Part shown: piece after piece, positions 3,253-21,475 of the stretch
Position numbering within the stretch: position 1 is the first letter of the stretch
Layout of the letters: each line of letters opens with the position of its first letter
IMG/VR virus record: IMGVR_UViG_3300027805_000068
Coordinates: 1 to 27,297 of that record
Length of the DNA: 27,297 nt
Source of the DNA: a virus
Lineage: Duplodnaviria; Caudoviricetes
Reading direction: 5' to 3' (one strand)
Program-made: the position numbers and the translations under genes
Notes under the pieces: model-generated
What the model saw: only the letters and a program-made list of their open reading frames with translations
Told to the model about the DNA's origin: nothing
Databases searched by the model: none

Positions 3253-3737
3253 AAGTCAGCCCCGCTGCCATCCAGATGATCAAGCACCACGAAGGGGTGA
3301 GGACTAAGCCTTACCGCTGCCCGGCGCTTTTATGGACGGTTGGCGTGGGCCACGTGATTGATCCAAAACACACCGCTATCCCATTTAATGAACGCAAAGA
3401 TCTACCGATACCCGCAGGCTGGGACCGGGTTCTCACGATGGACGAGGTGGACCGGATACTTTCTCAAGACCTTGGCCGGTTTGAGCGTGGTGTGGTTCGA
3501 CTTTGCCCTGCTGCTGTTGGCCGTCAGGGAGTCTTTGATTCTCTCGTCAGTTTTGCCTTCAACGTGGGCCTTGGCAATCTCCAACGTTCTTCCCTTCGGA
3601 TGAAGATCAACCGGGGCGAGTTTGAAGAGGCGGCTGACGAGTTCCTGAAATGGACGAAGGCTGGTGGTAAAGTACTGCCGGGATTGGTAAAAAGGCGCAA
3701 CGACGAACGGGCGTTGTACCTGTCAGGGGTTGTCTAA
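3249..3737 (+). CDS. Endolysin, GH24 phage lysozyme (muramidase)
   Basis: IKHHEGVRTKPYRCPALLWTVGVGH carries the E-x8-C/D-x5-T catalytic triad; FDSLVSFAFNVG; KWTKAGGKVLPGLVKRR..E..LYL. Confidence 0.95.
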   Translation: MKVSPAAIQMIKHHEGVRTKPYRCPALLWTVGVGHVIDPKHTAIPFNERKDLPIPAGWDRVLTMDEVDRILSQDLGRFERGVVRLCPAAVGRQGVFDSLVSFAFNVGLGNLQRSSLRMKINRGEFEEAADEFLKWTKAGGKVLPGLVKRRNDERALYLSGVV

Positions 3738-6025
3738 TGCCACTTCAGAAACTAGAACTCCGCCCCGGCGTTAACCGCGAATCAACTAGCTACGCCAACG
3801 AGGGTGGCTTCTTCGCATCCGACAAGGTGCGTTTTCGATCTGGCTACGCTGAAAAACTGGGTGGCTGGCAGAACATTAATTTTGCCTATACGTACAAAGG
3901 TGTAGCGCGATATCTCTGGAACTGGGTAACGGTTGTTGGTCAGAATCTTCTTGGCGTTGGTACTAATCAGAAAGTCTACGTAGAACTGGGCGGTGAGTTT
4001 TACGACATTACCCCACTCGCGTCATCTGTAACTCTTTCTGCTAATCCGTTTAGTACGGTGGCAGGCAGTAAAGCCGTTGAAGTTGGAGCCACTGCACATG
4101 GTACGTCTATCGGTACGTACGTCACTTTTTCAGGTGCGACGGCGGTTGGTAGCCTTACTTTAAACGGTGCGTTTGAGGTTGCTTCAGTCCCAAGCGCCAA
4201 TTCGTATGTCATTTATTCACCCACTGCGGCTGGTTCGACGGCTACGGGTGGCGGCTCTTTAGTCGTTGCTCAATACGATATTGATGCAGGTAATGCTGTC
4301 TATACCACCCAAGTTGGCTGGGGCGGTCCTCCGTGGGGTAGTGGTGGTTGGGGTTCAGCATCTCCTGCTGGCATCCCGATGCGGCTCTGGTCGATGTTTA
4401 ACTACGGCGATGACCTGATATTTGCTGAGCGTAGCGGTGAAATTTATTTTTGGACTAAAGACACTACTACGTGGGCACGAGCGGTATCGCTTGAAGACAA
4501 AGCCAACACGGTAGAGAAGACAGCAACTACGGCTACGGCTGCTTCTGGCGCTGCAACTATTGTGGTGGCTGACGCCACAGGCATTAACACTGGCTCTGTT
4601 GTATCAGGTACGGGCATTCCAACGGGTACTTTTGTAACTGCCGCTTGGACGGGTTCAACGTCTGTCACGCTTTCGGCAGTGATCACGGCCACGCTCACGG
4701 CTTCCGCCGTTTCTTTCAGTTTTGCGGGGCGTCATGTCCCCAACGAAACTAATGTCATCATCGACTCGCCCGTAAACGAATTCACGATTTGTATGGGTTC
4801 GACCCCGTACGACCCGACTAATTTCAACACGGTATTTAATCCGCTTCTTGTACGTTGGTCAGATCAAGGTAATCCGTACGAGTGGGTGCCTGAAGTTACT
4901 AATCAGTCTGGTGAGCAAACTCTGTCTCACGGCTCGTTTATCGTAGCTACGCAGAATACTCGTCAGGAAATTCTAATTTGGACTGATACCGCCATCTTCT
5001 CTATGCAGTACATTGGACCGCCGTTCGTGTGGAACTTTGTACTGTTAGATCAAGATATTTCTATTGCTTCGCAGAATGCAGCGCAAACGGTCAATAACGT
5101 CACGTATTGGATGGGTCGTGACAAGTTCTTCATGTATACGGGTCGCGTAGAAACGCTGCCTTGCACCCTTCGTCAGTTTGTCTATAACGACATTAACTAC
5201 GATCAACTTGATCAAGTTTGCACGGGCAGTAACGAGGGCTTCAATGAAGTCTGGTGGTTCTACCCGTCAGCCAATAGTTTTATTAATGATCGCTATGTGA
5301 TCTATAACTATCTTGAGCGTATTTGGTATTACGGCAATATCAATCGCACGGCGTGGTCCGAGCATACCCAGCGTAACTACCCAATCGCAGCGTTCTCTAT
5401 TCAGACTTCGTATCTAGCTACGTCGATTGATTCATCCATTACGACTATTGCCTTGGTAGATGCTGCAACGTACCCGTTAAGCGGTACGGTTACGATTGAT
5501 TCTGAGCAAATCACATACGCCAACATCGTTAACAATACTCTTACTGGATGCGTACGTGGCGCGAACTCTACCGTGGCTGCGTCTCATACTCAGTACACCG
5601 TTGTCAGTCTCAAGATTCCAAATCAAATCTTGTTGCATGAAGTTGGCAACGATGATGCGTCGGTCAATCCGCCTGTGCCGATTGAAGCGTTTATTGAGTC
5701 GTCAGATTTTGACATCCAAGACGGTCAGAACTTTGGCTACGTCTGGCGCATCCTACCCGACTTAAACTTCACGGGATCAAGTGGGGCCAATCCGTCTGTA
5801 ACGCTGACCGTTAAACCTCGTCAGAATTCAGGCAGTAACTACACCGCTGCCGATACGCCGACCGTTACCCGAACATCGGTAATCCCGATTCAACAGTACA
5901 CTGGTCAGGTCTATACCCGAGTGCGTGGTCGTCAGATGGCGTTCCGTGTGGACTCAACTGATCTCGGTGTGGCGTGGCAGATGGGCATGATGCGTATCGA
6001 CGTTAAACCGGATGGACGCCGATGA
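3737..6025 (+). CDS. Phage tail hub/stabilisation protein (P22 gp10 / tail tubular B-like)
   Basis: 762-aa beta-rich protein with PLLVRWSDQ, NQSGEQTL, EILIWTD, YWMG..KFFMY.G.V..LPC, EVWWFYPS and C-terminal RVRGRQMAFR...W..G.MRID..PDGRR, typical of podophage hub proteins; sits before the ejection genes. Confidence 0.75.
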   Translation: MPLQKLELRPGVNRESTSYANEGGFFASDKVRFRSGYAEKLGGWQNINFAYTYKGVARYLWNWVTVVGQNLLGVGTNQKVYVELGGEFYDITPLASSVTLSANPFSTVAGSKAVEVGATAHGTSIGTYVTFSGATAVGSLTLNGAFEVASVPSANSYVIYSPTAAGSTATGGGSLVVAQYDIDAGNAVYTTQVGWGGPPWGSGGWGSASPAGIPMRLWSMFNYGDDLIFAERSGEIYFWTKDTTTWARAVSLEDKANTVEKTATTATAASGAATIVVADATGINTGSVVSGTGIPTGTFVTAAWTGSTSVTLSAVITATLTASAVSFSFAGRHVPNETNVIIDSPVNEFTICMGSTPYDPTNFNTVFNPLLVRWSDQGNPYEWVPEVTNQSGEQTLSHGSFIVATQNTRQEILIWTDTAIFSMQYIGPPFVWNFVLLDQDISIASQNAAQTVNNVTYWMGRDKFFMYTGRVETLPCTLRQFVYNDINYDQLDQVCTGSNEGFNEVWWFYPSANSFINDRYVIYNYLERIWYYGNINRTAWSEHTQRNYPIAAFSIQTSYLATSIDSSITTIALVDAATYPLSGTVTIDSEQITYANIVNNTLTGCVRGANSTVAASHTQYTVVSLKIPNQILLHEVGNDDASVNPPVPIEAFIESSDFDIQDGQNFGYVWRILPDLNFTGSSGANPSVTLTVKPRQNSGSNYTAADTPTVTRTSVIPIQQYTGQVYTRVRGRQMAFRVDSTDLGVAWQMGMMRIDVKPDGRR

Positions 6026-6656: not shown

Positions 6657-9467
6657 ATGTATAACGACGCGCCCGAGGCAGGCTTAGCCTCCCTTCTTGC
6701 TTCCCGTGGCCGGAACGGTGATTCCGTGCTTGTTCACATGGCTCCCGAGGAGGTCCAAGGGCTTCAGGCTCTTGCGATGGCGCACGGCGGTGAACTAACC
6801 ATCAACCCCGATACGGGGCTTTACGAAGCCAATATCCTTAAGAAGTTCCTGCCCATGATTGCAGGCGCGGTCCTTAATACTGTCGCGCCGGGAGTAGGCG
6901 GGGCGATTGGTAAGTTTTTTGGGTTGTCTGGCACGGCTGCCAGTACGCTTGGCACGGGGCTGCTGGTTGGCGGTGTTACCGGCCTGATTGAGGGTGACCT
7001 GAAGAAAGGCTTGATGGCAGGCATCGGAGCTTATAGCGGTGCCAACCTTGCCCAGTCGTTGCAGGGTGCTTCTGTTGGGGCAGGCATAGAGCCTGAAAGA
7101 GTTTCTGCCGAAGAGCTTGCCAAGACCAATCAGGCTATGGAGGCCGCTAAGCAGACGGTCGGAGCTAAACCTGTATATAACCCCACTGGAGACGCTGAGA
7201 AAGTAGGCATCGACTTCTTTCAGTCCGCCAATAAGTTCAAAGGTACGCCCACTGTTGGCGATCTAGATATCGGTCGTCAGGCCATTGCTACGGGCGCTAC
7301 CACGCCTGATCAGATACTTGATTTCACCAAGTCGGCTAACGTCTTCAAGGGTACGCCGACACCAATGGATTTATCCACAGGCCGAGCAGCCAACATTGCT
7401 GGCACGGGTATGAGGGGTGTGGGCGAAGGAATCATGTCTCTCGTGCAGTCTCCGCAATCTCGCGGAGCATTTATTGATCGGTTGGGTGGTGGTTTCCAAT
7501 CTAATCTCGGTCAAAGCGCGTCAAAATACGCGACTTTGATGGGTGTTTCCGATGCCTTTACCCCTGAATACAAAGCCCCTTCGGGGCCGGTAAGCGACGA
7601 CTATATTTACATATCGGGCGGGTTCAATCCGATGTATAGCTATGGCCGTGAGCATAGTTATTTCCTGCCGGGTAAGTACTACAAAAAGACTAAAGAAGGT
7701 CTTGTGCCGTACAACCCCTACGCAATGGCACCGGGATATGCGACAGGCGGTCCTGTCCAAGCACCTGATCAGAATATGAATCAACCGCGTTCAATCCCGC
7801 ATCAGAACGCAACGTTTCCCTATCCCAACCAAAATTACCCCTTATCAACCGTAACAGGTACGTCGTATCCTGCTATGCAGGCTGGTAGTGCGCCGCAGCC
7901 GCAAGAAATCATTGGAAATTACGAACCGAACGTCAATCCGTATACGGGTGAGCAGCAGTTTGCTGACGGCGGTCCGGTAGAGGATGAGGAGGACAGACCT
8001 CCGGTAGGCGTTGCACCGCCTCCGCCTAATCCGTTTGCTCAGCCCACTGAGCCGGTGGCTAACCGACCTCCGCCTCCTAGTCCATTCGCTCAGCCCGCTG
8101 TGCCGGTGACTAACCCACCTCCGCCTCCGGAGCCGTCACCGCCTTCTCCGTTGACATTACCTCAAGACGGTCCTCCGAACCCGTTTGCTGCTCAGCGGCA
8201 GCGGTATGTGGATATGCTGAATGCTCCGCCCCCGGCTCCGGTTGATACCAAGCCGACGATGGACTATTTAGACCAACTTAGCCGTCGGGCACGGCAGCCT
8301 GAGTTTATGGTGTTCCCGCCGGGTGGTATTACTGGCGGTACGGGTGGAGGTACGGGCGGCACAGGCGGTACCGGTGGCGATAAAGGTGATAAGGGCGACA
8401 AGAACGAACCCGGTGGTGGTCGAGGTGGTCGTGAGACTGGAGGTGGCACTGGAACCGGTAGTGGTTCTGGTGGTGGTACGGGCGTTATTGGCGGCGGTAC
8501 TGGAACGGGTACGGGTGGTACTGGAACGGGTACAGGCGGTACTGGCCCCAAGACCGGCGGCGGTCCTCCGGGTACGGGCAAAGACGAAGGCGATGCTGAT
8601 GAGAATCAGGACGACGTTGAAGACGCCGAGAAGGAAGACGATGACAGCCTTCTTGATAAAGCCAAGGGCAAGTTCATGGAGTGGTTTGATAAACGCTTCC
8701 GTGATCCGTACGGTCTTGTCGGCACGGCTATTGGTCTTACCGGTGCCGGTATGCTTGGCACTTGGGCGTGGGACAAACTAACTCCAAACATCAAAAAGTT
8801 CTTTGCAACACCTGAAGGTTTGACCGAAGCACAGCAGCTTGAGATTGAAGAGGCTGTTCGCGCTCAACTTGAGGAAGAAAAGGCCAAGCAAGAGCAGGCT
8901 GCAAAAGACAAGGAAAAACAAGATAAAGAAAACGAAGGTCGTACTTCTCGCAGAGAAAACCGTGGCGGCGAAGGCCGTGGCGGTGCGGGTGTAGGCGGCG
9001 GAGCAGGAGGCGGTGGCGGATTTGGTAGTGGCAGTCGTAGGGGTGTAATTACGATTGAAGAAGACGTACTACCTGCACGTAAAGGTGGCCGTATCCGCGC
9101 TATGCAAGCGGGTGGTTTGCCCACGCCTCCTAATCCCTACGGCGCTGCTGTGGGTGAGGACTACAATTTTGGCTTTGCTCAAGGCGGTATGCCCGAGTAC
9201 AAGGCTGGTGGTAAGTTGTTAGATGGTCCCGGCGACGGGATGTCCGACAGCATCCCTGCGGTAATTCGCGGTAAGGGTGTACAACGTGCTGCGTTGGCAG
9301 ATGGCGAGTTCGTCATCCCGGCTGATGTGGTATCGCATCTCGGTAATGGCTCAACTAAAGCGGGAGCCAAGAAACTTTACGCAATGATGGATCGTATTCG
9401 TCAGGCACGGACGGGCAAGACTAAACAAGCCCCCGAAGTAAAAGCCGACAAATACATGCCTGCATAA
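6657..9467 (+). CDS. Internal virion/ejection protein with low-complexity insertions and tape-measure-like C-terminal motif
   Basis: N-terminal GRNGDSVLVHM...GG.LTINP.TGL.EA, Gly-rich hydrophobic hairpin, Pro-rich and Gly/Thr-rich tracts, C-terminal GPGDGMSDSIPA...LADGEFVIPADVV; occupies the P22 gp7/gp20/gp16-equivalent slot after the hub. Confidence 0.7.
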   Translation: MYNDAPEAGLASLLASRGRNGDSVLVHMAPEEVQGLQALAMAHGGELTINPDTGLYEANILKKFLPMIAGAVLNTVAPGVGGAIGKFFGLSGTAASTLGTGLLVGGVTGLIEGDLKKGLMAGIGAYSGANLAQSLQGASVGAGIEPERVSAEELAKTNQAMEAAKQTVGAKPVYNPTGDAEKVGIDFFQSANKFKGTPTVGDLDIGRQAIATGATTPDQILDFTKSANVFKGTPTPMDLSTGRAANIAGTGMRGVGEGIMSLVQSPQSRGAFIDRLGGGFQSNLGQSASKYATLMGVSDAFTPEYKAPSGPVSDDYIYISGGFNPMYSYGREHSYFLPGKYYKKTKEGLVPYNPYAMAPGYATGGPVQAPDQNMNQPRSIPHQNATFPYPNQNYPLSTVTGTSYPAMQAGSAPQPQEIIGNYEPNVNPYTGEQQFADGGPVEDEEDRPPVGVAPPPPNPFAQPTEPVANRPPPPSPFAQPAVPVTNPPPPPEPSPPSPLTLPQDGPPNPFAAQRQRYVDMLNAPPPAPVDTKPTMDYLDQLSRRARQPEFMVFPPGGITGGTGGGTGGTGGTGGDKGDKGDKNEPGGGRGGRETGGGTGTGSGSGGGTGVIGGGTGTGTGGTGTGTGGTGPKTGGGPPGTGKDEGDADENQDDVEDAEKEDDDSLLDKAKGKFMEWFDKRFRDPYGLVGTAIGLTGAGMLGTWAWDKLTPNIKKFFATPEGLTEAQQLEIEEAVRAQLEEEKAKQEQAAKDKEKQDKENEGRTSRRENRGGEGRGGAGVGGGAGGGGGFGSGSRRGVITIEEDVLPARKGGRIRAMQAGGLPTPPNPYGAAVGEDYNFGFAQGGMPEYKAGGKLLDGPGDGMSDSIPAVIRGKGVQRAALADGEFVIPADVVSHLGNGSTKAGAKKLYAMMDRIRQARTGKTKQAPEVKADKYMPA
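7212..7400 (+). repeat. Diverged 108-nt (36-aa) tandem duplication
   Basis: DFFQSANKFKGTPTVGDLDIGRQA (7212) versus DFTKSANVFKGTPTPMDLSTGRAA (7320). Confidence 0.8.
7995..8582 (+). repeat. Pro-rich (PPPPNPFAQP-like) and Gly/Thr-rich (GGT/GTG) low-complexity coding repeats
   Basis: PPPPNPFAQP, PPPPSPFAQP and PPNPFAAQ, followed by GGTGGGTGG... and a twice-repeated ggtactggaacgggtac. Confidence 0.85.
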
Positions 9468-9479
9468 TCGGGAGCGATA

Positions 9480-12347
9480 ATGGCTACTCCTCAAATTAGT
9501 GAACAAATACAAACCACTTCGAACATTCCGGAGTGGATGAAACCCTATGCGATGGAATTGCTAGGGAAAGCACAATTTCTTTCCAACCAAGGCTATCAGC
9601 CTTACGCAAGGCCAAAGTTAGACGCTAAAGGTAACCCTGTACTGGACGCGCAAGGTCGTCCGGTCATGGAGCCTATTCAGCGTTTAGAAGATTTCAGCCC
9701 ACTTCAAAGACAAGCATTTCAGAACATTGCTGGGATGCAGACTGCTGACCAACTTAGGCAGGCGACAGGTCTTGCTGGTCTTGCAGGTGTCGATGCTTCG
9801 CGGCTCTCGCGATACGATCCTGCCGCTGCTCAAAACTTTTACAATTCCCCTGAATTCCAGAGGATGCAGACCGAATTTGAGCGCGTAGGTGCTGCTCCCA
9901 CTACATCGTTTCAGATGGAAGGTCCGGGGGACGTAAGAGCGCAAGAACTTGAACGCTTGCAAATGCAGGGGCCGCGAGATGTTACGGCTCCATCTGACTT
10001 TGAGCGTATCCAGCAGCAGGCTTTGCAACAGTATCAAATGCGGGGACCGCAACAAGTCTCTGCACGTGATTATGATGCTATTGGGGTGCAAGCCCCGCGT
10101 GATATTTCTTCAGAGCGTGTTCAAGCCGCTCAAATGGCGGGTTTGCCGAGCGTTGCCGCAGCGCAGGCTGCCGCTGCCCGAATGGGGCCAGTGCGTGATG
10201 TTACTGCTCAGCAGTATGCCGCGCCCACGATGGCAGACTTTGAAAGAGTTTCTGCTCCCGCAGGTTACGAAGCAGAACGCGTTGGTGCTTATTCGTACGG
10301 CCCATTGCGGATGGACCCGGTTGATCGCGTAGCTGCGGAACGTGTACGTGCAGGTCAGTTACAGGCTGCTCAATCAGGGTTTAGGCCCGAACTTAGCGCA
10401 TATCAACTAACTGGCCCAGAACGAGTAGCGGCTGAGCGTTTTGGCCTTGGCTCCATGATGGAGTATATGTCGCCCTACATGCAGGGCGTTGTGGAGCGTC
10501 AAAAACAAGCGGCGACCCGTGACTACATGCGTGGTCTCCCGGCGTTGGGTGCGGCGGCTGCTCGTGCCGGTAGTCGTGGCGGTACTCGTGAAGCGTTGCT
10601 TCAGGCAGAGGCCCAACGTGGGTTGGCTGAACGCCTTGGTGATATTGAAGCGCAAGGTCTCCAACAGGCTTACCAACAAGCTTCAAGTCAATTTGGTCAA
10701 GACCGCGCTGCTCAAATGCAGGCTGCATTGGCTAACCAACAGGCGGGTCTCACGACGGGACAACAGAATCTGGCCGCTCTGTTGGGCGTTCAGGAGTTAG
10801 GGACTCAGACCGGACTGCAAGTTGCACTGGCAAATCTCACCGCCGAACAACAGGCGCGAGTGCAGCAACAGGCAAACATGCTCCAAGCGCAAGGCATGAA
10901 TCAACAATCTGCGCTTCAGGCTGCATTGGCTAACCAGCAAGCAGACTTGACTGTGGGTCAACAAAACCTTGCCGCAGAACAATCGCGTCAGCAGTTCATG
11001 GGACAGCAGAGCCTTCAGGCTCAACTGGCTAATCAACAGGCCAGTCAACGTGCCGCTGAGTTCCAAAGACAGCAACAGATGCAGGCTTCGCTTGCTAACC
11101 AGCAAAGTGGCCTCACGGTCGGTCAGCAGAATTTGGCTGCACAGTTGCAGACGATGGGGCTTAACGCTCAGCAAGCAATGGATGCTGCGCGTCTTAATCA
11201 AGCCGCTGATCTTACGATTGGGCAGCAAAATATGTCTGCTGAACAGCAGGCAGCACTGGCTAATCAACAGGCCCAGATGGAGGCTCAACGTCTCAACCAA
11301 GCGGCGGGGCTTACCGTTGGTCAGCAGAACTTGTCAGCAGAACAGCAGGCTCGACTGGCTAATCAACAGACTGGGTTGCAGGCGCTCCTTGCTAATCAGC
11401 AGGCGGGTCTCACAACGGCGCAGCAAAATGCTCAACTTGAGCAGGCTCGTCAGCAGTTCTTGAGTCAGCAGGGTCTTGAGGCTCAACGTCTTAATCAGGC
11501 GGCGGGACTTACTACTGAACAACAGAATTTGGCTGCGCTGCTACAGACGCAGGGACTTAGCGCCCAGCAAGCAATCGAAGCAGCCCGTCTTAATCAAGCC
11601 GCTGGTTTGCAGACAAACCAGATGGGACTTCAGGCTGCACTGGCTAACCAACAGGCTGGACTTACTACTGGTCAGCAAAACTTGGCCGCGTTGCTCCAGA
11701 CTCAAGGGCTTGGCGCTCAGCAGAATTTGCAGGCACAACTTGCCAACCAAGCAGCACGGCAGCAGACGGGTCAAACCAACCTTCAGGCGTTGATTAACCA
11801 GTCGCAGTTTGGTGCGGGTCAGGGTCTCCAAGCCCAGCAGATGAACCAGCAAGCCCAACTTCAGGCTCAGCAACAGGCTTTGGCTCAGTTGTCGCAGGCC
11901 AATCAGTTCAGTCAGCAGAACGCTGCTCAACGCGCTCAGTACGGTCTGGCCGGTGCGAACCTTGCCGAGCAGTCCCGTCAGTTTGGTGCTGGCTTGGGTA
12001 TGCAAGGGCTTCAGCAGCAGTTGGCCGCTGCCGGTATGCTAGGTAACTTGGGTCAGCAGCAGTATCAGCAGCAGATGGGTATTAATGCTGCCCAACTGGG
12101 CGCTGGCGGTCAGCAGCAAGCGTTTGGTCAAGAACTGCTCAATATGCAGTATCAAGACTTCCTTAACCAGCAGCGCCTGCCGTATCAGCAGTTAGAATTT
12201 ATGTCGGGCATCTTGCGTGGTCTCCCGGCAACGGGTCAGACTCAGACAATGTATCAGCAGCCGGGTAGTATGTTCGGTCAGATTGCTGGTATAGGCATGG
12301 GACTTGGCAGTTTGTTTGGCGGGTTCGGCCAAACTACGGGGAAATAA
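9480..12347 (+). CDS. Gln/Ala-rich ejection (DNA pilot/transfer) protein with hendecad repeat array
   Basis: GGAG SD; scaffold motifs IPEWMKPY...YQPY...FSPLQRQA, YMSPY.Q.VV, YQDFLNQQRLPYQQLEFMSGILRG and a C-terminal Gly-rich hydrophobic tail; 403-aa 11-mer array. Confidence 0.75.
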   Translation: MATPQISEQIQTTSNIPEWMKPYAMELLGKAQFLSNQGYQPYARPKLDAKGNPVLDAQGRPVMEPIQRLEDFSPLQRQAFQNIAGMQTADQLRQATGLAGLAGVDASRLSRYDPAAAQNFYNSPEFQRMQTEFERVGAAPTTSFQMEGPGDVRAQELERLQMQGPRDVTAPSDFERIQQQALQQYQMRGPQQVSARDYDAIGVQAPRDISSERVQAAQMAGLPSVAAAQAAAARMGPVRDVTAQQYAAPTMADFERVSAPAGYEAERVGAYSYGPLRMDPVDRVAAERVRAGQLQAAQSGFRPELSAYQLTGPERVAAERFGLGSMMEYMSPYMQGVVERQKQAATRDYMRGLPALGAAAARAGSRGGTREALLQAEAQRGLAERLGDIEAQGLQQAYQQASSQFGQDRAAQMQAALANQQAGLTTGQQNLAALLGVQELGTQTGLQVALANLTAEQQARVQQQANMLQAQGMNQQSALQAALANQQADLTVGQQNLAAEQSRQQFMGQQSLQAQLANQQASQRAAEFQRQQQMQASLANQQSGLTVGQQNLAAQLQTMGLNAQQAMDAARLNQAADLTIGQQNMSAEQQAALANQQAQMEAQRLNQAAGLTVGQQNLSAEQQARLANQQTGLQALLANQQAGLTTAQQNAQLEQARQQFLSQQGLEAQRLNQAAGLTTEQQNLAALLQTQGLSAQQAIEAARLNQAAGLQTNQMGLQAALANQQAGLTTGQQNLAALLQTQGLGAQQNLQAQLANQAARQQTGQTNLQALINQSQFGAGQGLQAQQMNQQAQLQAQQQALAQLSQANQFSQQNAAQRAQYGLAGANLAEQSRQFGAGLGMQGLQQQLAAAGMLGNLGQQQYQQQMGINAAQLGAGGQQQAFGQELLNMQYQDFLNQQRLPYQQLEFMSGILRGLPATGQTQTMYQQPGSMFGQIAGIGMGLGSLFGGFGQTTGK
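10734..11942 (+). repeat. 33-nt (11-aa) period array: 26 x 11 aa + 1 x 18 aa + 9 x 11 aa
   Basis: Manual parse: NQQAGLTTGQQ / NLAALLGVQEL / GTQTGLQVALA / NLTAEQQARVQ ...; 1209 nt = 403 aa = 35x11 + 18. Confidence 0.92.
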
Positions 12348-12350
12348 ACA

Positions 12351-14048
12351 ATGATCGGTCCAGTTAGCGGTACGGGTCGTGCAATGATGGCCTCACTTCA
12401 GCAGGCCATGTCCAAGGGTATGCCGCCTGATCAGGCAATCCAGTACGTCAAGAGCATGGCTACACAAGGCGTTGCTCCGATGACGGATCTGTATGCAATG
12501 GTCAATCAGTTTGAACGACTGAAGCAGCAGCAAGTTAAGCCGCCCCAGACGCCGCCAACGATTAAAGATCAGTTGAATATTCTGGATCAGCAGCAACAGA
12601 TGCAGCGTGACACTACCGACCGCAGCGGTGGGCTTGGGGGTTTAGGTGGCCCGACTAGTTATGCTGGTGAAATGGGTAATCAACTTATGGATCGTGGCCT
12701 TGGCGCGATTGACGCTGGCCGTATGGAGTATCCGCAGTTTGCTGGCGGTGGCGTGGTTGCGTTGGCTGCTGGTGGCGACCCTGACGACTACGAACAAATC
12801 TACGGTCGGTTGAAGGGTTCTAAATCTGTTCTTGGTATGTTCCCCAGTGTCAGTGCTGAGAACCTAGAGTTCTTGCGCGACCCTAATAAGTTTTCTACTG
12901 AAGAAGTGGCGCGTCTATTTGCTATTGCTTTGAGCAAAGAAGACATGAATACAGCCAATCCTCTCTACAGCATATTACGACAGAGAGGCATATCTGACGC
13001 CGAGTTAAAAAATATTCAAAGGCAGACCCGTGCTGGTGTACGTGGCGTACAAGGGGCGATGGCAGATGAAGCCGAAGCCGCCAAGTTCCAAACTCTTCGT
13101 ACTGGTCAAACCACGGCACCTCCTGTAACTACTGCCCCCTCTGCCGGTACACAAGCGCCGCCTCCTGACGTTGCACCACCTATTGCCGCTGCACCTAATC
13201 CGTTTGCTGGACTTGGGTCAGTATCTGGCGATTTCAGTAAGTCGCGTGATTTCCTCAGTCAGTTGTCTGCTTCCAAGAAGAGCGATGCTGACCTGACAGA
13301 AGAACAGCAGATTGAGAAGTTAGAAGCTCTCAATAAAAAGTACGGCATCGGTAAGGCCGATGAAGAGTACGGCAAGTATCTTGAGCGTCGTGAAGGCGAG
13401 GCTGGTAAACAACTGGCTGAAGACCGTCGCATGGCTCTGGCTCAGGCTGGCTTCGCTATGGCGGAGGCTGCTTCTCGTCGTGGCCGTGAACGTACTGGGT
13501 TCCTTGGCGCTGCCGCTATCGGCGGTACAAAGGCTGCACAACTTATTGACAAGGCTGTACGTGAGAACCGTGCATTGAAAGACCGCCTTGCTGAGAGCCG
13601 CATGGCTTTGGCTCAGTCACAAGAAATGCGTAAGGCAGGCAACATCAAGGAAGGCTTGGCGTTGCAGCGTTCGGCTAAGAAAGACTATGACGCTACGCTG
13701 GCTGCCATTGCTCAGAATGAGCAGAACATTTCTGAACTGATGACTCGTGAGCGCGGTATGGACCGTCGCACTATGGCTCAGATTGGCGCTCAAGAAAGAA
13801 GTACAGCCGCGCAAATTACTTCTCAAAGAGAAGACCGTGAAGCTGCTCGTGCCGCTGAAACAGACTACCGTAATGCACTTATTGGGCTTAAGCGCGAAGA
13901 ACTTGGTATTAAGAAAATGGCTGAGATAGCCATGATACCCGACAAGGAACAGCGTGAAAAAGCGTTACAAGAAGTGCTTAAAAGTTTAGCGGGTGGTGAA
14001 GAAGCGATGACCGGCGTTGAGGATTTGCTTGCCAAGTACGGTAGGTAA
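12351..14048 (+). CDS. Internal virion/ejection protein (alpha-helical, coiled coil)
   Basis: 565 aa; PPQTPPTIKDQL, FAGGGVVALAAGG, ALAQAGFAMA...GFLGAAAIGG amphipathic segment, long charged helices; syntenic between ejection proteins. Confidence 0.7.
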   Translation: MIGPVSGTGRAMMASLQQAMSKGMPPDQAIQYVKSMATQGVAPMTDLYAMVNQFERLKQQQVKPPQTPPTIKDQLNILDQQQQMQRDTTDRSGGLGGLGGPTSYAGEMGNQLMDRGLGAIDAGRMEYPQFAGGGVVALAAGGDPDDYEQIYGRLKGSKSVLGMFPSVSAENLEFLRDPNKFSTEEVARLFAIALSKEDMNTANPLYSILRQRGISDAELKNIQRQTRAGVRGVQGAMADEAEAAKFQTLRTGQTTAPPVTTAPSAGTQAPPPDVAPPIAAAPNPFAGLGSVSGDFSKSRDFLSQLSASKKSDADLTEEQQIEKLEALNKKYGIGKADEEYGKYLERREGEAGKQLAEDRRMALAQAGFAMAEAASRRGRERTGFLGAAAIGGTKAAQLIDKAVRENRALKDRLAESRMALAQSQEMRKAGNIKEGLALQRSAKKDYDATLAAIAQNEQNISELMTRERGMDRRTMAQIGAQERSTAAQITSQREDREAARAAETDYRNALIGLKREELGIKKMAEIAMIPDKEQREKALQEVLKSLAGGEEAMTGVEDLLAKYGR

Positions 14049-14050
14049 AA

Positions 14051-17000
14051 ATGGCTACGCTTAACCAAATTGCTACTGCGTTACGCAGAGCAGACGCGGC
14101 TGGAGATGTCGAGGCCGCTACGCGATTAGCCGCTGCTTATCGTAAGTTAGAAGATGACTTAAAAAGCCGGTTTGAACCTCCCAAAGAACAGGCGGGTTTT
14201 ACTGGCGCATTTAAAGACGCTGTCACTACGCTTGGTCTAACCGACGAGGCTGCGGCATTTGCCGCCAATCCTACGGAAGAGAACCGTGCGGCTTTCCTCA
14301 AGGCTGCTGAGTCCAAGTACAAATCAGTTGGCGGGTTCGGTAAGGGCGAGAACTGGGAAGCCTTCAAGGAACTACTTGGTGGTTCGCTCGGTGCATTGGT
14401 TGCGCCTCTCGGTGCGGGTGTTGTTGGCGGCATACCGGGTTTTGCTGGTGTAAGCGGCGCTCAATACGGCATCCAAAATCTGCGCCGTCAGGCTGAAGAA
14501 CAACAGGCTGCTGCTGAAGCAGGTGAAGCCGTTCCCGAGTTGTCACTTGGTAGGGCCGCTGCCGCAGCCACTGGACAGGCCGCGTTAGATGTTGTTCCCG
14601 GCGCGTTAATCCTGCGTGGGTTAAGCAAGTTTCCGTTGGCGCAAGGACTCATGGCTGAAGGCACCGCGTCTCGTCGTGCTGCCGATGTACTTGCCGACGC
14701 TTTTGCTAATGAGAAACTGTCTCTAAAGGGTAACGTCGTTAAGGGCGTTGGTCTTGGCGTTGCCTTTGAAGTCCCACAAGAAATTGCTCAACAGGCTTTG
14801 GAACGATGGCAAGCAGGTCTGTCTTTAACAGACGATGAGGCCAAGGAAGAATTTAAGCAGGCTGCGATTGGCGCGGCTGTTCTCGGTGGTGGATTTGGCG
14901 CTATCGGTGGGTATGGTGCCTATCGTGGTGTGCAGGCAGAGAAAGCCAAAGAGATTGAAGATGCTCGGTTGAAGGCTCTTGCTGAAGAAAGAGAACGTGC
15001 TGAGATTGAAGAGAGTTTGTTTGCGGCACCCGCTGAAGGTGGAATACCCGCTGAATTCCTTGAACAGGCTCGACGCCGTGAGAGCGATGACATCGCTCGT
15101 AGTTTGCTTACACGTCCTACTGAAAGCGGTATTCCTTACGAACTTCTTGAAGAACCAGAACAGCGTGAAGCGCGTTTAGAAAACGAAGCCGTTCAAGAAG
15201 AGCGTCGTCAATACAGTGCACGAACATTGCGTGAAGCTGCCGAGGCAGAAGCTCTTGCACCTCGTGAAGATGAGGGCGCTCCATATTTCCCGCCTGAAGA
15301 ACAGGTAGAAGAGGATTTATTTCCGCCCAGTGCTGAAGCTCGTGCTGGCCTAGAGTTCCAGCAGGGTGAGCGGTTGATGGGTGACGAGGACATACTGGAG
15401 GGACTTGGTGCGCCTACCGAAAGTGGCATCCCCGGTTACATGTTTGAGCCACAGGCTCCGTCTACCGAAGGCGTACTTGAAGGACTAGGTGCGCCTACCG
15501 AGAGCGGCGTTCCTGCCGAAATGTTTGAGCCGACCCCGCGAGAGTTGGCTCTTGAAGTTATTCAAGTAAGCCCGACTATTAAAGCTATTGCCCAAGCGAC
15601 CGGACTCAATCAACCTAAAGCTGCTGCGTTGATGCGGCAGTTTGTGGACGAGGGGATCGTTGAGCAAAAAGGTAATAAGTTTAGAGTCGTTACTACCGAG
15701 GCTGCCGCTGAGCCGGAGGCTACCGATGTATCAGGCCCAACAGTTACTACTACAGAGACTGACACTGGAGCAGGTGGAAGAAGCACTGACCTGTTTACAT
15801 TGGGATCGCCAGCCGGAGAACTTGGTGCTCCGCCAGCTAGAGGCGCAGGACTGGATACTGCTGGCGACGTTACTGAACGGGTTGATGACCGAGAAAGAAA
15901 TGTACCCGCTGCATTAGAACCTCTTCCTACATCAGAGCCGCCTCCTACATCAAAGCCTCCTTCTGCACTGGAGCCGCCCCCTGCACTAGAAACAACGGGT
16001 GTCCTTGAAGGGCTAGGTGCGCCTACCGAGAGCGGTTTGCCGCCTGACATGATTGAGGGCTACACCGCCGAACGTGCGCGTGTGTCTGACCTGCGTACTC
16101 GTGCACTTGATTTCATCCGCGAGACTGGCAAGGGCAGTGCGCCTGATCTTCAAAAGGCGCTTGATATCCCGTTGTCTGAAGCCAAGACGTTGCGTAGCGC
16201 GTTGCTTGGTACGGGCGCTGTAGTTCAAAAGACCAACGTCAAGGCTGCTAAAACGGCGGGCCGTAGTTACTTTGTCACTGAAGGAACTTATACACCAGAT
16301 ATTACTGAGCGTGCTGCTGGAGTGGAGCGCACGACTGAGAAAGTTGACAAGTTAAGTAAACGACAGATTAGAGAGCAGCGCACTAAACAAGCCATAAGTC
16401 GTATGGGCATGGCTCCGTACGTTGAAGAAGAGACAGTGCCAGAAGCAGAAAGCCGTCGTCGTGAAATGGATGCGGCTGCTGAACTTGAAGCCAAGACTGA
16501 ACGCAAACTGCCTCCTACCCTTAGCCCAGATATAGGCAAGGGCGAGTACGGGCTTAGATACACAGATCCGGAAGGCGCTACCGTATACCGTGCATACCCT
16601 TCTGTGGGTGAGCGTAACGAGGCTCGTGCTCAGATTGCCAACGCTGGCGGTAAAGACATCGCTACCTTCTCGCGTATGGCGGAAGCCACTAAGTTTGAAC
16701 TTGATTACGCAAGGCGCGTTGCAACTCCCGCCATGAACAAAGCACAAGTACAGCGTGCTGTTCAGGGTATTCGTGCGGGTATGTCCAAGCTTAAAACACA
16801 GCTTGGTCTCTTTACTGAGGAAGAAGCGCCCACTCCGCAAAAGCCGACGCCTAAAAAAGTTACGCAAAAGGAACTTGTTGACTATGCCAAGCAAGTCATT
16901 GTGCAGGTGCGTGATGCGGGCAAACTCAAGAAATATTCGCGCCCAATTAGAGAAGTTCTTGATGCAGTAGAGCGCGGCGATACTGATCTCCGTGCCGAAT

Positions 17001-20000
17001 ACAAACGGCTGCAAAGGATTGAGACACGCCTTGAAACGGAAGCCTACGAAGTTGGTGAGGCTAAGCAGGCTCGGTTGGAGCCTTCCGAAATTGAAGGAGT
17101 TGAGGAAGCCGGAATAGAGTCTGCTGATGCAGCGATAAAGGAGCGTGACGAGTCTTACGCGCCGCTCGACTTCCGCAAACTTAGATTTAAGCGCGTACGT
17201 AATCCTCAAATTGACACGCCTCAATTTAAAAATTGGTTTGGGGAAAGTAAAGTTGTTGATAGCAACGGAGAACCACTCGTTGTTTATCACGGCATGCCCG
17301 GAGAATTTGAAGGGGAAACTTTATACAAATCAAAATACGGGGCTTTGGGGGAGGGCATTTACTTCACGAGTGACCCTGAAGCTGCGAGTCGCTTTGCGGC
17401 CGGGCTTAGGGGTTCAAGAGTTGGGGAAGAACCAAAAGTCCAAGGAAACGTAGTTCCGGCATATTTAAAAATCGAAAGGCCGTTTGATAACAACTTTTTT
17501 GTTGGAAACAAAGACTGGCAGGGATGGCTGGCATCCCTCATTGAATCAAAATTAAAATACAGCCCATCTTATTATGGGCCGTTTGGTCGCGCATACGCAC
17601 AAGACTTGCTGAATGATCTTAAGAATGGAGAGGCCACAGTAAAGGATGCGCTTTTCTTCCCGGTTGGCGGAGGCGAAACGCAATGGGGGAAAGACCTTCT
17701 TGATGCCGTAAGAAGTGCAAATTACTTCGATGGAATAATCCTAGAAAAATCTCAAAAAGGATTTGATGAATACCTTGTATTCGACAACAGCCAGATAAAG
17801 TCAGCAGTTGGTAACGTAGGTACGTTTAGCCGAGAAGATAATCGAATTCGGTTCCAAAAGCTCCGCAGCGAAACAATCGGGATGAGTGCTGACAATGTCA
17901 GGACTCTAGTTAGTAACATCATCTCCGGTTGGCGTAACCCACCTAACTTTGTTGTCGTGCAGAGTTATCTTGATCTGCCGTCAATAGAAGGGGCTGACCC
18001 CGAGACGTACGCAGACTCTATCGGTATCTCTATTGGCAATGATGTCTACATCATCGCTGATAACGTGCGTTCGCCACGGGATCTGAAGGCCACGGTATTC
18101 CATGAATCCCTAGGTCACTACGGTCTTGCACGGTTGTTCGGTGAGCAGCTTTTCAAAGTCATGCTCGATATCTACAACAGCAACCGTGCGATTGCAGCCG
18201 ATGCCGATGCGTGGCTTGAAGAGAACCCGAACACGTATCCTGAATCACAATTCACACGGGATGAGCGTCGGGCGCTGGCAGTAGAAGAAATCCTGTCGGA
18301 GATGTCCGAGGCTGGTCCGATTCAGAACATGAAGTGGCGCGCTGCGTTCAATCGCGTGGCGGCTTTGATCCGCAAGTTTGCTCGTGCGCTTAGTCAGTTG
18401 GTGGGCAAGAACCTTGCCTACAGCAACACCGAAGTGACTGACATCATCACGCAAGCGCACAACATGGTCATTAGCGGAAGGACTCAGCTTGTCCCGCGTC
18501 AGGACAACATCCGCTATATGAAAGCGAAACACAGAAAGATATTAACCGATGCCATGCGTCGGGTTCAGAGCGGTGCGCCAAGCGCGACGAAGGAGATTCT
18601 GGAAGGCAACATCAACGCCTTGGATAACCTTCCTAGTCGGATGCGTTCTTTCAAGCTCAGCACGTTCTCGCTGCATCACCTAATGCAGTTGTACGAGAAG
18701 TATGCACCTGCCTTCCGTCGTCTCAACATACTCGTTGAGCGCATGGCTAAAGACGCCTCGGATCTTATGGTTGAGCATGAGAAGAAAGCGTTTAAGTACC
18801 GCGAGGTCTTGCGTAACAATCCTAGATTTATTGATGCGTTCAACCAACTAGCTAACGACATCAATATTTCACAGACTCCGTTGCTTGCCGAGCAGTTAGA
18901 CAACAGAGGTAACTTCCTACGCTTTGTTCCTGATCAGGCTGTGATCCAGAGGATGCGTGGTATCCCTGCGAATAGCGCCGCGTACAACGCGCTGTCTCCA
19001 GAGGACAAGGTACTGCACAAGGCGGTGCAAGACTTCTCTGCGCTTCCTGCCGATATGCAGGCAATGGTGGCGGATGTATTTGGCGACTACCGTCGGTACG
19101 GCGATACTGCGTTCCAAGCCAAGTTGGAACAGTTCCTGAATGTCCTGCCGCCTAACGTGGTGGCTGCGATCCGCACCAAGTATCAAGGCAAACGCCTGAA
19201 GTATTACTTGCCGCTGCGTCGTGAAGGCACGTACAAACTAACTTATAAAACTCCAGACGCCAAAGATGTAAGCGAGTTTTACGAAAGTAAAGCGGCGTGG
19301 GAAGTAGGTAAAGAAAAAGCCGCCCGTGCAGGCGGGGTGGGTATGTCTGATGAACCAATTATCATCAGAGAGAATACGTACGAAAATGGACGACCGCCGA
19401 CCGGCTTGCTGAAAGAACTCAGTGACAATGTGGCAGAGGCACTGAGTGCTGTTAATGCCTCTACGCAAACTATTAACGATACCCAACGAATAATTTTTGA
19501 AACCTTTGTAGATTACATGCCGGGTTCGGCAGGAAACGACCTGCGACAAGACATGAGTTCTCGTCAAACGTGGGTATTTAACGGCGTTACTTACTACGGT
19601 CGTCTTGGCTATAACGAAGATGTGGTTGGTGTGTACGAGTCCTCCGTGCCGAGGATGCTCTATCGCATAAACGCGATGAAGTACACGATGCCGCTTGAGA
19701 AAGTTAAAGAGAAAATTAGCGAGCAATTAAAAACTTACGTTAATAATAAAGGCGCTCCGCAATACGCAGGCGTGCCTGATATCAGCACGGATTACGTAAG
19801 TGACTTGCAAAGCGAAGTCGAAGACCGAATCAGGTTTGCCAAAAACCCGTTTTATTCGGGTTACGTATATACGTTGTCCAAGGCAAACTACATCTACAGT
19901 ATTGCGCTGAACATTTCGTCTGCGCTTATCAACACGACCATCATTCCCATGATGGCTTGGCCTACTCTTGCTGCCAAGTATGGCGTGATCAATGCAAGTC

Positions 20001-21475
20001 GGGCTGTGTCGCAGGCAATGGGGATGTTCTTCCGTAATGCGTTCCGCGACCCGGCTACGGGTAGGTTGACGTTTAATCAGAACCCGTCGTTTGGTAACGG
20101 GCTGCAAAATCAGACCGCTCCGCATATGCAGGAGTTCGCTCAACTGCATCGTATGCTTGAGATGCGCTCGGTTACGGGTACATCGGCTGAACAAGAATTA
20201 CAGCAGGCACAGAACATTAACGTGCCCGGCTACGAGGGTTTAAGCGCCAAAGCAAACCTTGTGATGAGTTACGCTTTCCGTAGTTCGGAACGTATGAACC
20301 GTGAGGTCACGGCGCTTGCTGCCTATATGTTGGCTCGTAACATTGACGCTAACGGACAGAAGTTTGATCCGAACCGTGGGCAGGCAAGTGTCGGCAGAGC
20401 AACCGAAGATGCCATCCGTCTGAACTATGACGTGAACGGCGCTACGCTGCCTGAAACTAACAGCGGTCTGTACCAGACTGACATTGGTCGTATCGTGTTG
20501 ACGTTCAGAACCCACGCTCTGAACATGATCATCAACCTTGCCATGACGTTTAATCAGGCGGTTGAGAAGATCAACGTTAACGAACCAAACGCTGCTAACC
20601 GTAAACTGCTGCGCTCAATCGCCAGAAAGAAATTGCTGTATGTCTTTGGCTCGACGTACATGCTGGCAGGTATCAAGGGCTTGCCGCTCTTCGGTGCAGC
20701 CGAGGTGCTCGCGTCGATGCTCATGGGTGACGATGACGAGCCGTACGATCTTGAGCAAGAAGTGCTTGATGCAGTAGGCACGTTAGGTTTGAACGGCCCG
20801 ATCAACGAATTGCTTAACGTAGACATTGGTTCCAGAACGGGCTTTTATGGTCTTCTCTGGCGCGATGATCCAAAGCGGCTTGCCGAAGTTGGTATACCGG
20901 TTTACATAATGGAGCGCATTGCTGGCCCGACGTATGGCCTTGTTGAGGCAGCGCGGCGTGGGTTCAACGACTTCGCTGAAGGAGATATACAACGAGGATT
21001 TGAAGCAATTCTTCCTGCACCCCTGCGTAACCCGCTAAAGGCTATGCGATACGGTATAGAAGGTGCTTTAACTAGAGATGGTTTGCCTATCGTTGAGGAC
21101 GTTAGCGCCTACAACTCCATGATGCAGATACTAGGCTTTGCCCCGGCAGATCTGGCCGTGGCTCAGTCACAGCGCGGTGCGACGTACGAGATTGGCGAGA
21201 AGTTGAAAAACCGTCGTGTCGCTCTCTTGACTAACTTGTATGCGGCACGGAAGGCGGGGAACGCAGAGGCGGTAGAAAAAGCAATGGATGACATCCGGTC
21301 GTTCAACGAAGCCAATCCTGCCTACCGTATTAAGGGCAGCACTCTCCGCAAATCTTACGAAGAACGTGAGCGCCGTGCTCAACAAGCAGTTGGTGGAGTG
21401 TTCCAGCCAAGGAGCTTGCGTATCGCTACGTCTGAATACATGGCTGATTTGGACGAGGAAGAGGGGCTGCTCTAA
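14051..21475 (+). CDS. Large polyvalent internal virion protein (2474 aa): Gly-rich hydrophobic N-region, two winged-HTH domains, ADP-ribosyltransferase (ART-PolyVal-like), HExxxH metallopeptidase (MPTase-like), PLxRFG-like/LPD C-terminal region
   Basis: TPQFKNWFG.SKVVD.NGEPLVVYHG...G.GIYFT...GNVVPAYL...DGII...EYLVF...QIKSA.GN.GTF (17216-17857); VFHESLGHYGL (18101) plus downstream AVEEILSEMSE; YYLPLRREGTY (19202); last gene of the virion block. Confidence 0.85.
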   Translation: MATLNQIATALRRADAAGDVEAATRLAAAYRKLEDDLKSRFEPPKEQAGFTGAFKDAVTTLGLTDEAAAFAANPTEENRAAFLKAAESKYKSVGGFGKGENWEAFKELLGGSLGALVAPLGAGVVGGIPGFAGVSGAQYGIQNLRRQAEEQQAAAEAGEAVPELSLGRAAAAATGQAALDVVPGALILRGLSKFPLAQGLMAEGTASRRAADVLADAFANEKLSLKGNVVKGVGLGVAFEVPQEIAQQALERWQAGLSLTDDEAKEEFKQAAIGAAVLGGGFGAIGGYGAYRGVQAEKAKEIEDARLKALAEERERAEIEESLFAAPAEGGIPAEFLEQARRRESDDIARSLLTRPTESGIPYELLEEPEQREARLENEAVQEERRQYSARTLREAAEAEALAPREDEGAPYFPPEEQVEEDLFPPSAEARAGLEFQQGERLMGDEDILEGLGAPTESGIPGYMFEPQAPSTEGVLEGLGAPTESGVPAEMFEPTPRELALEVIQVSPTIKAIAQATGLNQPKAAALMRQFVDEGIVEQKGNKFRVVTTEAAAEPEATDVSGPTVTTTETDTGAGGRSTDLFTLGSPAGELGAPPARGAGLDTAGDVTERVDDRERNVPAALEPLPTSEPPPTSKPPSALEPPPALETTGVLEGLGAPTESGLPPDMIEGYTAERARVSDLRTRALDFIRETGKGSAPDLQKALDIPLSEAKTLRSALLGTGAVVQKTNVKAAKTAGRSYFVTEGTYTPDITERAAGVERTTEKVDKLSKRQIREQRTKQAISRMGMAPYVEEETVPEAESRRREMDAAAELEAKTERKLPPTLSPDIGKGEYGLRYTDPEGATVYRAYPSVGERNEARAQIANAGGKDIATFSRMAEATKFELDYARRVATPAMNKAQVQRAVQGIRAGMSKLKTQLGLFTEEEAPTPQKPTPKKVTQKELVDYAKQVIVQVRDAGKLKKYSRPIREVLDAVERGDTDLRAEYKRLQRIETRLETEAYEVGEAKQARLEPSEIEGVEEAGIESADAAIKERDESYAPLDFRKLRFKRVRNPQIDTPQFKNWFGESKVVDSNGEPLVVYHGMPGEFEGETLYKSKYGALGEGIYFTSDPEAASRFAAGLRGSRVGEEPKVQGNVVPAYLKIERPFDNNFFVGNKDWQGWLASLIESKLKYSPSYYGPFGRAYAQDLLNDLKNGEATVKDALFFPVGGGETQWGKDLLDAVRSANYFDGIILEKSQKGFDEYLVFDNSQIKSAVGNVGTFSREDNRIRFQKLRSETIGMSADNVRTLVSNIISGWRNPPNFVVVQSYLDLPSIEGADPETYADSIGISIGNDVYIIADNVRSPRDLKATVFHESLGHYGLARLFGEQLFKVMLDIYNSNRAIAADADAWLEENPNTYPESQFTRDERRALAVEEILSEMSEAGPIQNMKWRAAFNRVAALIRKFARALSQLVGKNLAYSNTEVTDIITQAHNMVISGRTQLVPRQDNIRYMKAKHRKILTDAMRRVQSGAPSATKEILEGNINALDNLPSRMRSFKLSTFSLHHLMQLYEKYAPAFRRLNILVERMAKDASDLMVEHEKKAFKYREVLRNNPRFIDAFNQLANDINISQTPLLAEQLDNRGNFLRFVPDQAVIQRMRGIPANSAAYNALSPEDKVLHKAVQDFSALPADMQAMVADVFGDYRRYGDTAFQAKLEQFLNVLPPNVVAAIRTKYQGKRLKYYLPLRREGTYKLTYKTPDAKDVSEFYESKAAWEVGKEKAARAGGVGMSDEPIIIRENTYENGRPPTGLLKELSDNVAEALSAVNASTQTINDTQRIIFETFVDYMPGSAGNDLRQDMSSRQTWVFNGVTYYGRLGYNEDVVGVYESSVPRMLYRINAMKYTMPLEKVKEKISEQLKTYVNNKGAPQYAGVPDISTDYVSDLQSEVEDRIRFAKNPFYSGYVYTLSKANYIYSIALNISSALINTTIIPMMAWPTLAAKYGVINASRAVSQAMGMFFRNAFRDPATGRLTFNQNPSFGNGLQNQTAPHMQEFAQLHRMLEMRSVTGTSAEQELQQAQNINVPGYEGLSAKANLVMSYAFRSSERMNREVTALAAYMLARNIDANGQKFDPNRGQASVGRATEDAIRLNYDVNGATLPETNSGLYQTDIGRIVLTFRTHALNMIINLAMTFNQAVEKINVNEPNAANRKLLRSIARKKLLYVFGSTYMLAGIKGLPLFGAAEVLASMLMGDDDEPYDLEQEVLDAVGTLGLNGPINELLNVDIGSRTGFYGLLWRDDPKRLAEVGIPVYIMERIAGPTYGLVEAARRGFNDFAEGDIQRGFEAILPAPLRNPLKAMRYGIEGALTRDGLPIVEDVSAYNSMMQILGFAPADLAVAQSQRGATYEIGEKLKNRRVALLTNLYAARKAGNAEAVEKAMDDIRSFNEANPAYRIKGSTLRKSYEERERRAQQAVGGVFQPRSLRIATSEYMADLDEEEGLL
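15020..16058 (+). repeat. Five dispersed (L)EGLGAPTESG(I/V/L)P-type repeats plus a 4 x 18-nt EPPP tandem (15917-15988)
   Basis: FAAPAEGGIPAEF, LTRPTESGIPYEL, ILEGLGAPTESGIPGY, VLEGLGAPTESGVPAE, VLEGLGAPTESGLPPD; the nucleotide core ggtgcgcctaccga is identical in three copies. Confidence 0.85.

Follow-up and report, generated by a model that had tools for sequence, protein, structure and literature searches.

A Gln/Asn-rich hendecad array geared 33:16 to an upstream repeat arm suggests a hairpin-built ejection tube in an uncultured tailed phage

The window, a 27,297-nucleotide stretch covering positions 1 to 27,297 of the IMG/VR virus record IMGVR_UViG_3300027805_000068 (27 kb, 43% complete), has a tailed-phage gene content (hub, lysozyme, helicase, primase) and encodes a 955-amino-acid (aa) protein that contains a long Gln/Asn-rich array of 11-residue repeats (hendecads). 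This array is one half of a structure whose other half is an unrelated repeat in the upstream arm (N-arm) of the same chain. The chain very probably folds back around a central tip as a hairpin, because the two arms flank a core of constant length, lengthen and shorten together at 16:33 with their units mirrored, and show coupled residue pairs in antiparallel arrangement. With a probability of roughly 0.6, a ring of such strand-plus-helix hairpins extends the tail from the hub to the outer membrane, forming a DNA tube of ~80 nm.

Translation and composition counts bear out the array described in a first-pass annotation of this DNA: 26 hendecads, one 18-residue unit (11 + 7), and nine further hendecads in 11-residue register, with 118 Gln, 81 Ala, 57 Leu, and 32 Asn residues, neither Pro nor Lys, and Asn as the first residue of 25 of the 35 hendecads and of the 18-mer. 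The frame and units were placed correctly, but the array is only part of the open reading frame (ORF), and the helical arm to which it belongs extends over approximately aa 407–871. Identity autocorrelation against 300 composition shuffles yields the anticipated peak at lag 11 (z 4.0), with far stronger peaks at lag 33 (z 15.0) and lag 66 (z 12.3). Because z at lag 33 lies so far above that at lag 11, the working unit of the array is 33 aa, composed of three different hendecads (3 × 11). The strongest hydrophobicity period is 2.20 rather than the expected 3.67; this value arises when the second harmonic of the 3.67 period is aliased, and it marks a helix with two packing faces. On an 11/3 wheel, a Leu stripe and an Ala stripe are separated by ~164°; the face that lies between the stripes carries Gln, and the face across from it carries Asn and Gly. 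Positions 3 and 7 carry Gln or Asn in 39 of 70 cases and no large hydrophobic residue. The earlier estimate of a helical array of ~60 nm is supported.

An assembly artefact was considered for the window's array and rejected. The DNA copies are diverged (48% identity at lag 99), the longest exact internal repeat measures 19 bases, and an IMG/VR copy has equal length with 22 differences. Single contigs from two lake runs span positions 9365–11820 (X2) and 10433–11845 (X3) with one difference each, in a comparison that covered four of 24 listed runs and in which X2 or X3 might itself be the window's source. The array stretch is present in 20 runs from 18 studies of lake, freshwater, or drinking water.

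Measured between conserved anchors, the array-side arm (C-arm) of the window protein comprises 465 residues, the second longest of 301 family members (range 35–513, median 161). Modulo 11, C-arm lengths fall into one class in 201 of 241 proteins; another 24 belong to the class 7 below it, 11 to the class 7 above it, and five lie elsewhere. Among 49 C-arm changes between sister tips of the core tree, 38 are multiples of 11 (34 of these of 33), six equal 11k + 7, two equal 11k + 4 (these eight involving 7 or 18), and three are of other sizes. The first-pass expectation that homologues differ in steps of 11 or 18 residues holds.

The N-arm, containing 8% Pro and exhibiting periods of 16 and 11 with autocorrelation peaks at 16, 32, and 48, changes length together with the C-arm. 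In 225 of the 241 proteins, the two lengths correlate with a Spearman coefficient of 0.97 and a Theil-Sen slope of 0.485, equal to 16/33, while the core spacer between them remains 38 residues in all 225. The correlation recurs in 63 unique sequences of 87 IMG/VR matches (r 0.99), and contrasts on the tree share the same sign in 200 of 214 cases, with a median ratio of 0.485. Changed sister pairs fit 16:33 within four residues in 40 of 51 instances, in steps such as 16/33, 32/66, 48/99, and 64/132. The rule N = 16/33 C − 9.7 places 271 of 301 proteins within five residues (standard deviation (SD) 1.0). Applied unchanged to a fresh set of 142 representatives, which may share a few sequences with the earlier loci, the preset rule places 103 of the 119 proteins with all anchors within three residues, bringing the co-variation to about 400 relatives in all.

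For three motif pairs, the counts in the two arms agree in 205, 213, and 223 of 225 proteins, usually because both arms lack the motif; where present and equal (23, 40, and 3 of 225), they move outward from the core jointly. A linear map of the arms, anchored on the single coupled pair 313–426, places each NQxAxL hendecad of the window protein opposite or next to a unit of the GPxxV type and aligns the 18-mer with the sole 9-residue unit of the N-arm. A unit-specific test of the map in 148 proteins scores 13.1, 14.9, and 11.0 bits for the antiparallel arrangement versus 5.1, 6.7, and 7.7 bits for the best parallel one, with the antiparallel score maximal at a slope of 0.485. This test was designed once the outcome of an earlier proline-phase test was known, in which unit types were mixed and the maps were not separated (antiparallel 0.33, best parallel 0.41, background 0.25).

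Coupling analysis of 245 register-aligned sequences, with unmatched-arm proteins left out, revealed antiparallel pairs at the core, from 350–381 through 342–386 and 331–395 to 313–426, and between the termini, from 61–897 through 68–891 and 71–883 to 91–861. In this first set, 18 of the 20 top long-range pairs lie on hairpin tracks drawn post hoc; with the tracks fixed, a fresh set of 106 sequences again places 18 of 20 on them, against a background of 4%, with terminal pairs at 86–868, 80–881, and 68–894. Plain mutual information on a gapped alignment returned mostly noise. In AlphaFold2 models of two short relatives, the N-arm is random coil, the C-arm is helix, and the core adopts a helical hairpin. 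Searches of the PDB with two family alignments found no sequence at E ≤ 10, Foldseek found no PDB structure for either model at E ≤ 0.001, and Foldseek against BFVD returned uncultured-phage or unnamed proteins. The fold-back hairpin entertained in the first-pass annotation is likely, but it is the whole protein that would fold back, with a partner strand lying outside the array reported there.

Both the unit-specific map test and the fresh sequence set largely refute a model in which the array alone forms a phiX174 H-like barrel or a tape measure, with the N-terminal region as a slack linker. Such a linker needs only a minimum length, not a match with an SD of 1.0 residue and paired unit types, and the gene sits in a podophage ejection cassette. 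The model draws on the resemblance of the hendecad geometry and amide-rich face to H (PMC7354561), and we consider it very improbable. H shares 11/3 helices and a Gln/Asn-rich face with the array but is an ssDNA microvirus protein, forming a 170 Å decamer with only three hendecads and no partner strand, and serves as an analogy only (PMC7354561). Tape-measure profiles are not matched by the 955-aa protein, whose neighbors are of podophage type in this 43% complete record. The first-pass choice of H and tape measures as the nearest models gives way to P22 gp7 and T7 gp14.

The 955-aa protein itself matches no PHROG or Pfam profile at E ≤ 0.001; it joins PHROG 4287 through its relatives. The phrog_4287 profile, "DNA ejection protein", is matched by eight of nine shorter relatives and by all ten further members, seven of them from cultured phages (E 6.5e-91 to 0.0095). 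Because of this family match of the relatives and the gene slot, the protein can be assigned with high confidence as an ejection protein, as the first-pass annotation had supposed. The family is very large, numbering 2,950 clusters (50% identity, E ≤ 1e-30). One member, gp27 of Sinorhizobium phage phiM5, carries an annotation of detection in virus particles, and Bjorn gp56 matches phrog_4287 at 4.5e-16. Pa223 gp56, which bears the same number, is a proposed outer-membrane channel (10.1101/2025.06.11.659172). In the window, the gene follows a lysozyme, the tail hub, a 199-aa ORF, and a 936-aa ORF and precedes ORFs of 565 and 2474 aa; the P22 order is gp10, 26, 14, 7, 20, 16. The array gene occupies the slot of P22 gp7 and Pa223 gp56. 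A tblastn search with the relative P0221 matched no cultured phage, and a shorter member used as query did match some.

The window protein shares its core, turn motif, outer blocks, and gene slot with the cultured PHROG 4287 members (phiM5 gp27, HTVC023P gp81, GB2A gp064, CRP-901 gp33, Bruynoghevirus-like gp56, and the proteins of DSL-LC04 and MinM2), but spans 535 residues from tip to outer block compared with 89–197 in these members. With P22 gp7 (PF25688, phrog_598) it has in common the gene slot, a fold-back topology as indicated by coupling and co-variation, a central turn, a Gly-rich hydrophobic C-terminal end, and Gln/Asn-rich arms; unlike gp7, a 229-aa protein with two helical arms crossing a ~6 nm gap, its N-arm is extended and its stalk up to tenfold longer. 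In the family, helix on both sides is confined to the core and outer blocks, unlike the two helical arms of gp7. P22 gp7 folds back with residues 90–126 in the hub and its C-terminal end in the outer membrane, and the extracellular channel is a dodecamer (10.64898/2026.09.03.749273). T7 gp14, two antiparallel helices, is ejected as a hairpin held in the nozzle (PMC11784390), as is Peru-2 P2_38 (10.64898/2026.06.25.734500); in both, unlike the window protein, the two arms are helical. The ESM Atlas offers no more than a lead to P22 gp7 (0.88, in a cluster with 18% P22_gp7). The window protein is a PHROG 4287 member that probably works like gp7 or gp14 and is not classed as gp7.

In the proposed tube, the C-arm would form a continuous 11/3 helix rising 0.1485 nm per residue. 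The N-arm would run alongside this helix in an extended, polyproline-II-like conformation, each hendecad type being matched by its own type of N-arm unit. If both arms cover an equal distance, the rise of the N-arm works out at 33 × 0.1485 / 16 = 0.306 nm for each residue, in line with the ~0.31 nm of strands in polyproline-II or extended form. Helix geometry suggests that the Leu stripe (positions 2, 6, and 10) and the Ala stripe (11, 4, and 8) pack against adjacent helices, that the Gln face (3 and 7) points into the lumen, and that the strand sits in an outer groove formed by the Asn/Gly face (1, 5, and 9). A two-stripe wheel would suit a wide, amide-lined barrel with such a groove. By analogy with P22 gp7 and T7 gp14, the hairpin tip would dock in the hub with both chain ends at the membrane, the wall would comprise ~6–12 copies, and the 565-aa protein encoded downstream would prolong the channel. 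Duplications occurring in pairs, one at each of two positions in the gene, would reset the tube length. The tip-to-outer-block distance corresponds to about 79 nm in the window protein, the array alone accounting for ~60 nm, and to about 14–29 nm in seven cultured relatives. A broader and more tentative proposal, to which we give slightly less than even odds, is that the extendable tail of this podophage family consists of a single-chain helix-plus-strand zipper with a fixed 33:16 gearing, its length reset by paired duplications from ~14 to >80 nm and tuned to the depth of the host surface coat. On this proposal, the family would represent a podophage counterpart of the tape measure and a natural modular nanotube with a sequence-readable length.

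Several observations weigh against this picture. The least-squares slope of the tree contrasts is 0.37, owing to outliers; 11 of the 51 sister-pair changes are unmatched; and the arms are unmatched in 30 of 301 proteins, several being off by 25, 32, or 74 residues. Direct coupling is limited to the arm ends and does not cover the middle of the array, and the models of the two relatives are weak, with predicted template modeling scores of 0.26 and 0.39 and an N-arm predicted local distance difference test score (pLDDT) under 50. Sequence homology to P22 gp7 was not detected, and a profile comparison gave 0.3%, a value that shuffled controls equalled. For the core, a weak fold match to T7 gp14 (7ey7_A, Z 8.2, root-mean-square deviation 4.6, 91 aligned residues) is tied with generic, unrelated hairpins. 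The hub-to-membrane gap of P22 is only about 6 nm (10.64898/2026.09.03.749273). Arm length shows no tie to the lengths of the hub, upstream, and downstream genes (rho 0.10, −0.08, and −0.09; n 47, 31, and 48), so that nothing shows what keeps the virion 70–80 nm off the membrane.

The unmatched arms, the placement of the N-arm without confidence in the models, and the refolding of ejection proteins from a stored to an ejected state (PMC11784390) would all fit a real hairpin that builds no DNA-tube wall, acting instead as a low-order coiled-coil stalk or harpoon in the membrane, or using the N-arm as a chaperone that stops the long helix assembling within the capsid and is released on ejection. 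We regard this as unlikely, given that stripes ~164° apart with a Gln face between them favor a wide barrel over a trimer, that the coupled termini agree with the ejected topology of gp7, and that the unit-by-unit match implies a fully stretched pair of 70–80 nm, hard to fit in a capsid.

In P0015, P0039, P0106, P0173, P0209, and P0001, the unmatched arms depart from those of a close relative in whole-unit steps (0/66, 25/0), which may be errors of assembly or stages on the way to a completed paired duplication. P0011, P0030, P0031, and P0037 carry 74 residues too many on the N side, P0011 through a non-repeat insertion near the N-arm start. Roseophage CRP-901 gp33 (L112:13392-14777) contains five N-arm repeats of 12–13 aa and five C-arm repeats of 18 aa, a separate expansion with other units, suggesting that the paired growth of the arms had more than one origin and that the gearing can differ. 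A C-terminal Peptidase_S74-type chaperone tail follows in P0027, P0046, P0057, and L111:6566-7972, its motif occurring in 4 of 301 members, with Pfam matches in phiM5 gp27 and P0057; domains of this type are usually tied to trimeric fibers.

Every line of hairpin evidence fits equally well a tube of the same build located inside the envelope, crossing a wide periplasm, or the thick wall of a host that lacks an outer membrane, and ending in the inner membrane. Genome-bin matches gave no host assignment, three of the 15 being Actinobacteria bins, and no matching long receptor-binding part was identified among the loci. The 15 bins belong to unrelated phyla, however, and the matches are probably phage contigs binned in error; the cultured members infect Gram-negative hosts. 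The gene slot moreover corresponds to that of the outer-membrane protein and is followed by a tunnel-slot gene, making the internal location quite unlikely. The tube reaching from the hub to the outer membrane remains the preferred reading. A link between tube length and an S-layer, raised in the first-pass annotation, finds no support: Caulobacter is an S-layer host, and the one examined member from such a host, that of Caulobacter phage GB2A, is short (n = 1).

Table 1. Segments of the 955-aa protein and neighboring genes in the window
Feature	Positions	Strand	Basis
955-aa ORF holding the array; predicted ejection protein, PHROG 4287 family	9480..12347	+	phrog_4287 matches of shorter relatives
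Conserved N-terminal block, aa 1–108, short helices	9480..9803	+	antiparallel pairing with aa 850–900; helices in models of two relatives
Extended N-arm, aa 109–324, Pro-containing 16/11/9-aa repeats (MxGPxxV type)	9804..10451	+	autocorrelation, co-variation, coil in both models
Sole 9-residue unit of the N-arm, aa 169–177, mirror partner of the 18-mer	9984..10010	+	
Length-invariant core, aa 325–406, helix-turn-helix hairpin; putative tail-hub-binding end	10452..10697	+	fixed spacer, coupling, model
Core hairpin tip, near aa 360–370	10557–10589	+	
Helical C-arm, aa 407–871, includes the array	10698..12092	+	helix in models of relatives
Reported repeat array, aa 419–821	10734..11942	+	stop-free translation, 403 aa; 33-aa period
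18-mer (11 + 7), aa 705–722	11592..11645	+	
Conserved C-terminal block, aa 872–919, pairs with the N-terminal block	12093..12236	+	coupling
Gly-rich, moderately hydrophobic tail, aa 928–950; putative membrane anchor	12261..12329	+	hydropathy
Tail hub, 762 aa, phrog_3287 (family of Pseudomonas phage Bjorn gp59)	3737..6025	+	profile match
936-aa ORF, conserved upstream neighbor	6657..9467	+	context
565-aa ORF, probable slot of the periplasmic tunnel protein (from gene order)	12351..14048	+	context
2474-aa polyvalent protein, slot of the largest ejection protein	14051..21475	+	context

Beyond the arms, the C-terminal tail of the protein reaches a 19-residue hydropathy of 1.24, the maximum of the whole chain (Table 1). 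Among cultured phages, the closest relatives of the hub are those of DSL-LC04, MinM2, pelagiphages HTVC023P and HTVC027P, and roseophage CRP-901. A recurrent gene order, holding within contig reach in 71 loci with all anchors, consists of the hub, a small ORF, a 936-aa-like ORF, an optional ~140-aa ORF, the family gene, a mid-size ORF, and a giant ORF. The ~140-aa ORF, often directly upstream of the family gene, matches acetyltransferase profiles in two of ten tested cases and the Bjorn gp57 family in three of ten. In 13 of the 71 loci (L007, L008, L025, L040, L047, L063, L065, L069, L089, and others), the family gene is fused to a downstream part of 450–565 aa, which suggests that the ejection protein and the downstream protein act together.

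An (F/Y/M)A-x-GG-x-(V/I) motif is present in the 936-aa ORF (three strict matches) and the 565-aa ORF and also lies behind the family C-terminal end in 19 of 19 fused proteins (e.g., L007, L025, and P0099); it is possibly a protease site or a packaging signal. The 2474-aa protein (14051–21475) contains an ART-PolyVal domain at aa 1070–1259 and a DarB-like C-terminal region. At the start of the window, a 5′-open ORF (positions 3–893) is composed of ~47-aa repeats without a Pfam match, and its product is possibly a receptor-binding part.

Arm pairing is absent from the consulted passages of the DEV, N4, and Pa223 papers (PMC10925440, PMC13434306, 10.1101/2025.06.11.659172) and of PMC10386132, and a search of the open literature, with subscription journals outside its scope, listed no report of ejection proteins whose arms co-vary. 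We found no description of the proposed architecture, in which an extended strand in exact register braces a helix. The first-ejected podophage channel protein, the gp14 class, is said to be the most size-constant (181–240 aa; PMC8954989), and here it carries a helical arm varying from 35 to 513 residues. The in-step expansion of two sites that are separated by 300 to 2,000 bases within one gene poses an evolutionary puzzle. If the protein forms a tube, short-tailed phages could, after binding, grow tails as long as those of some long-tailed phages, and the gap bridged by uncultured phages would be readable from sequence. The 16 + 33 module would then offer a direct test of tube length against the host envelope in harmless, culturable systems.

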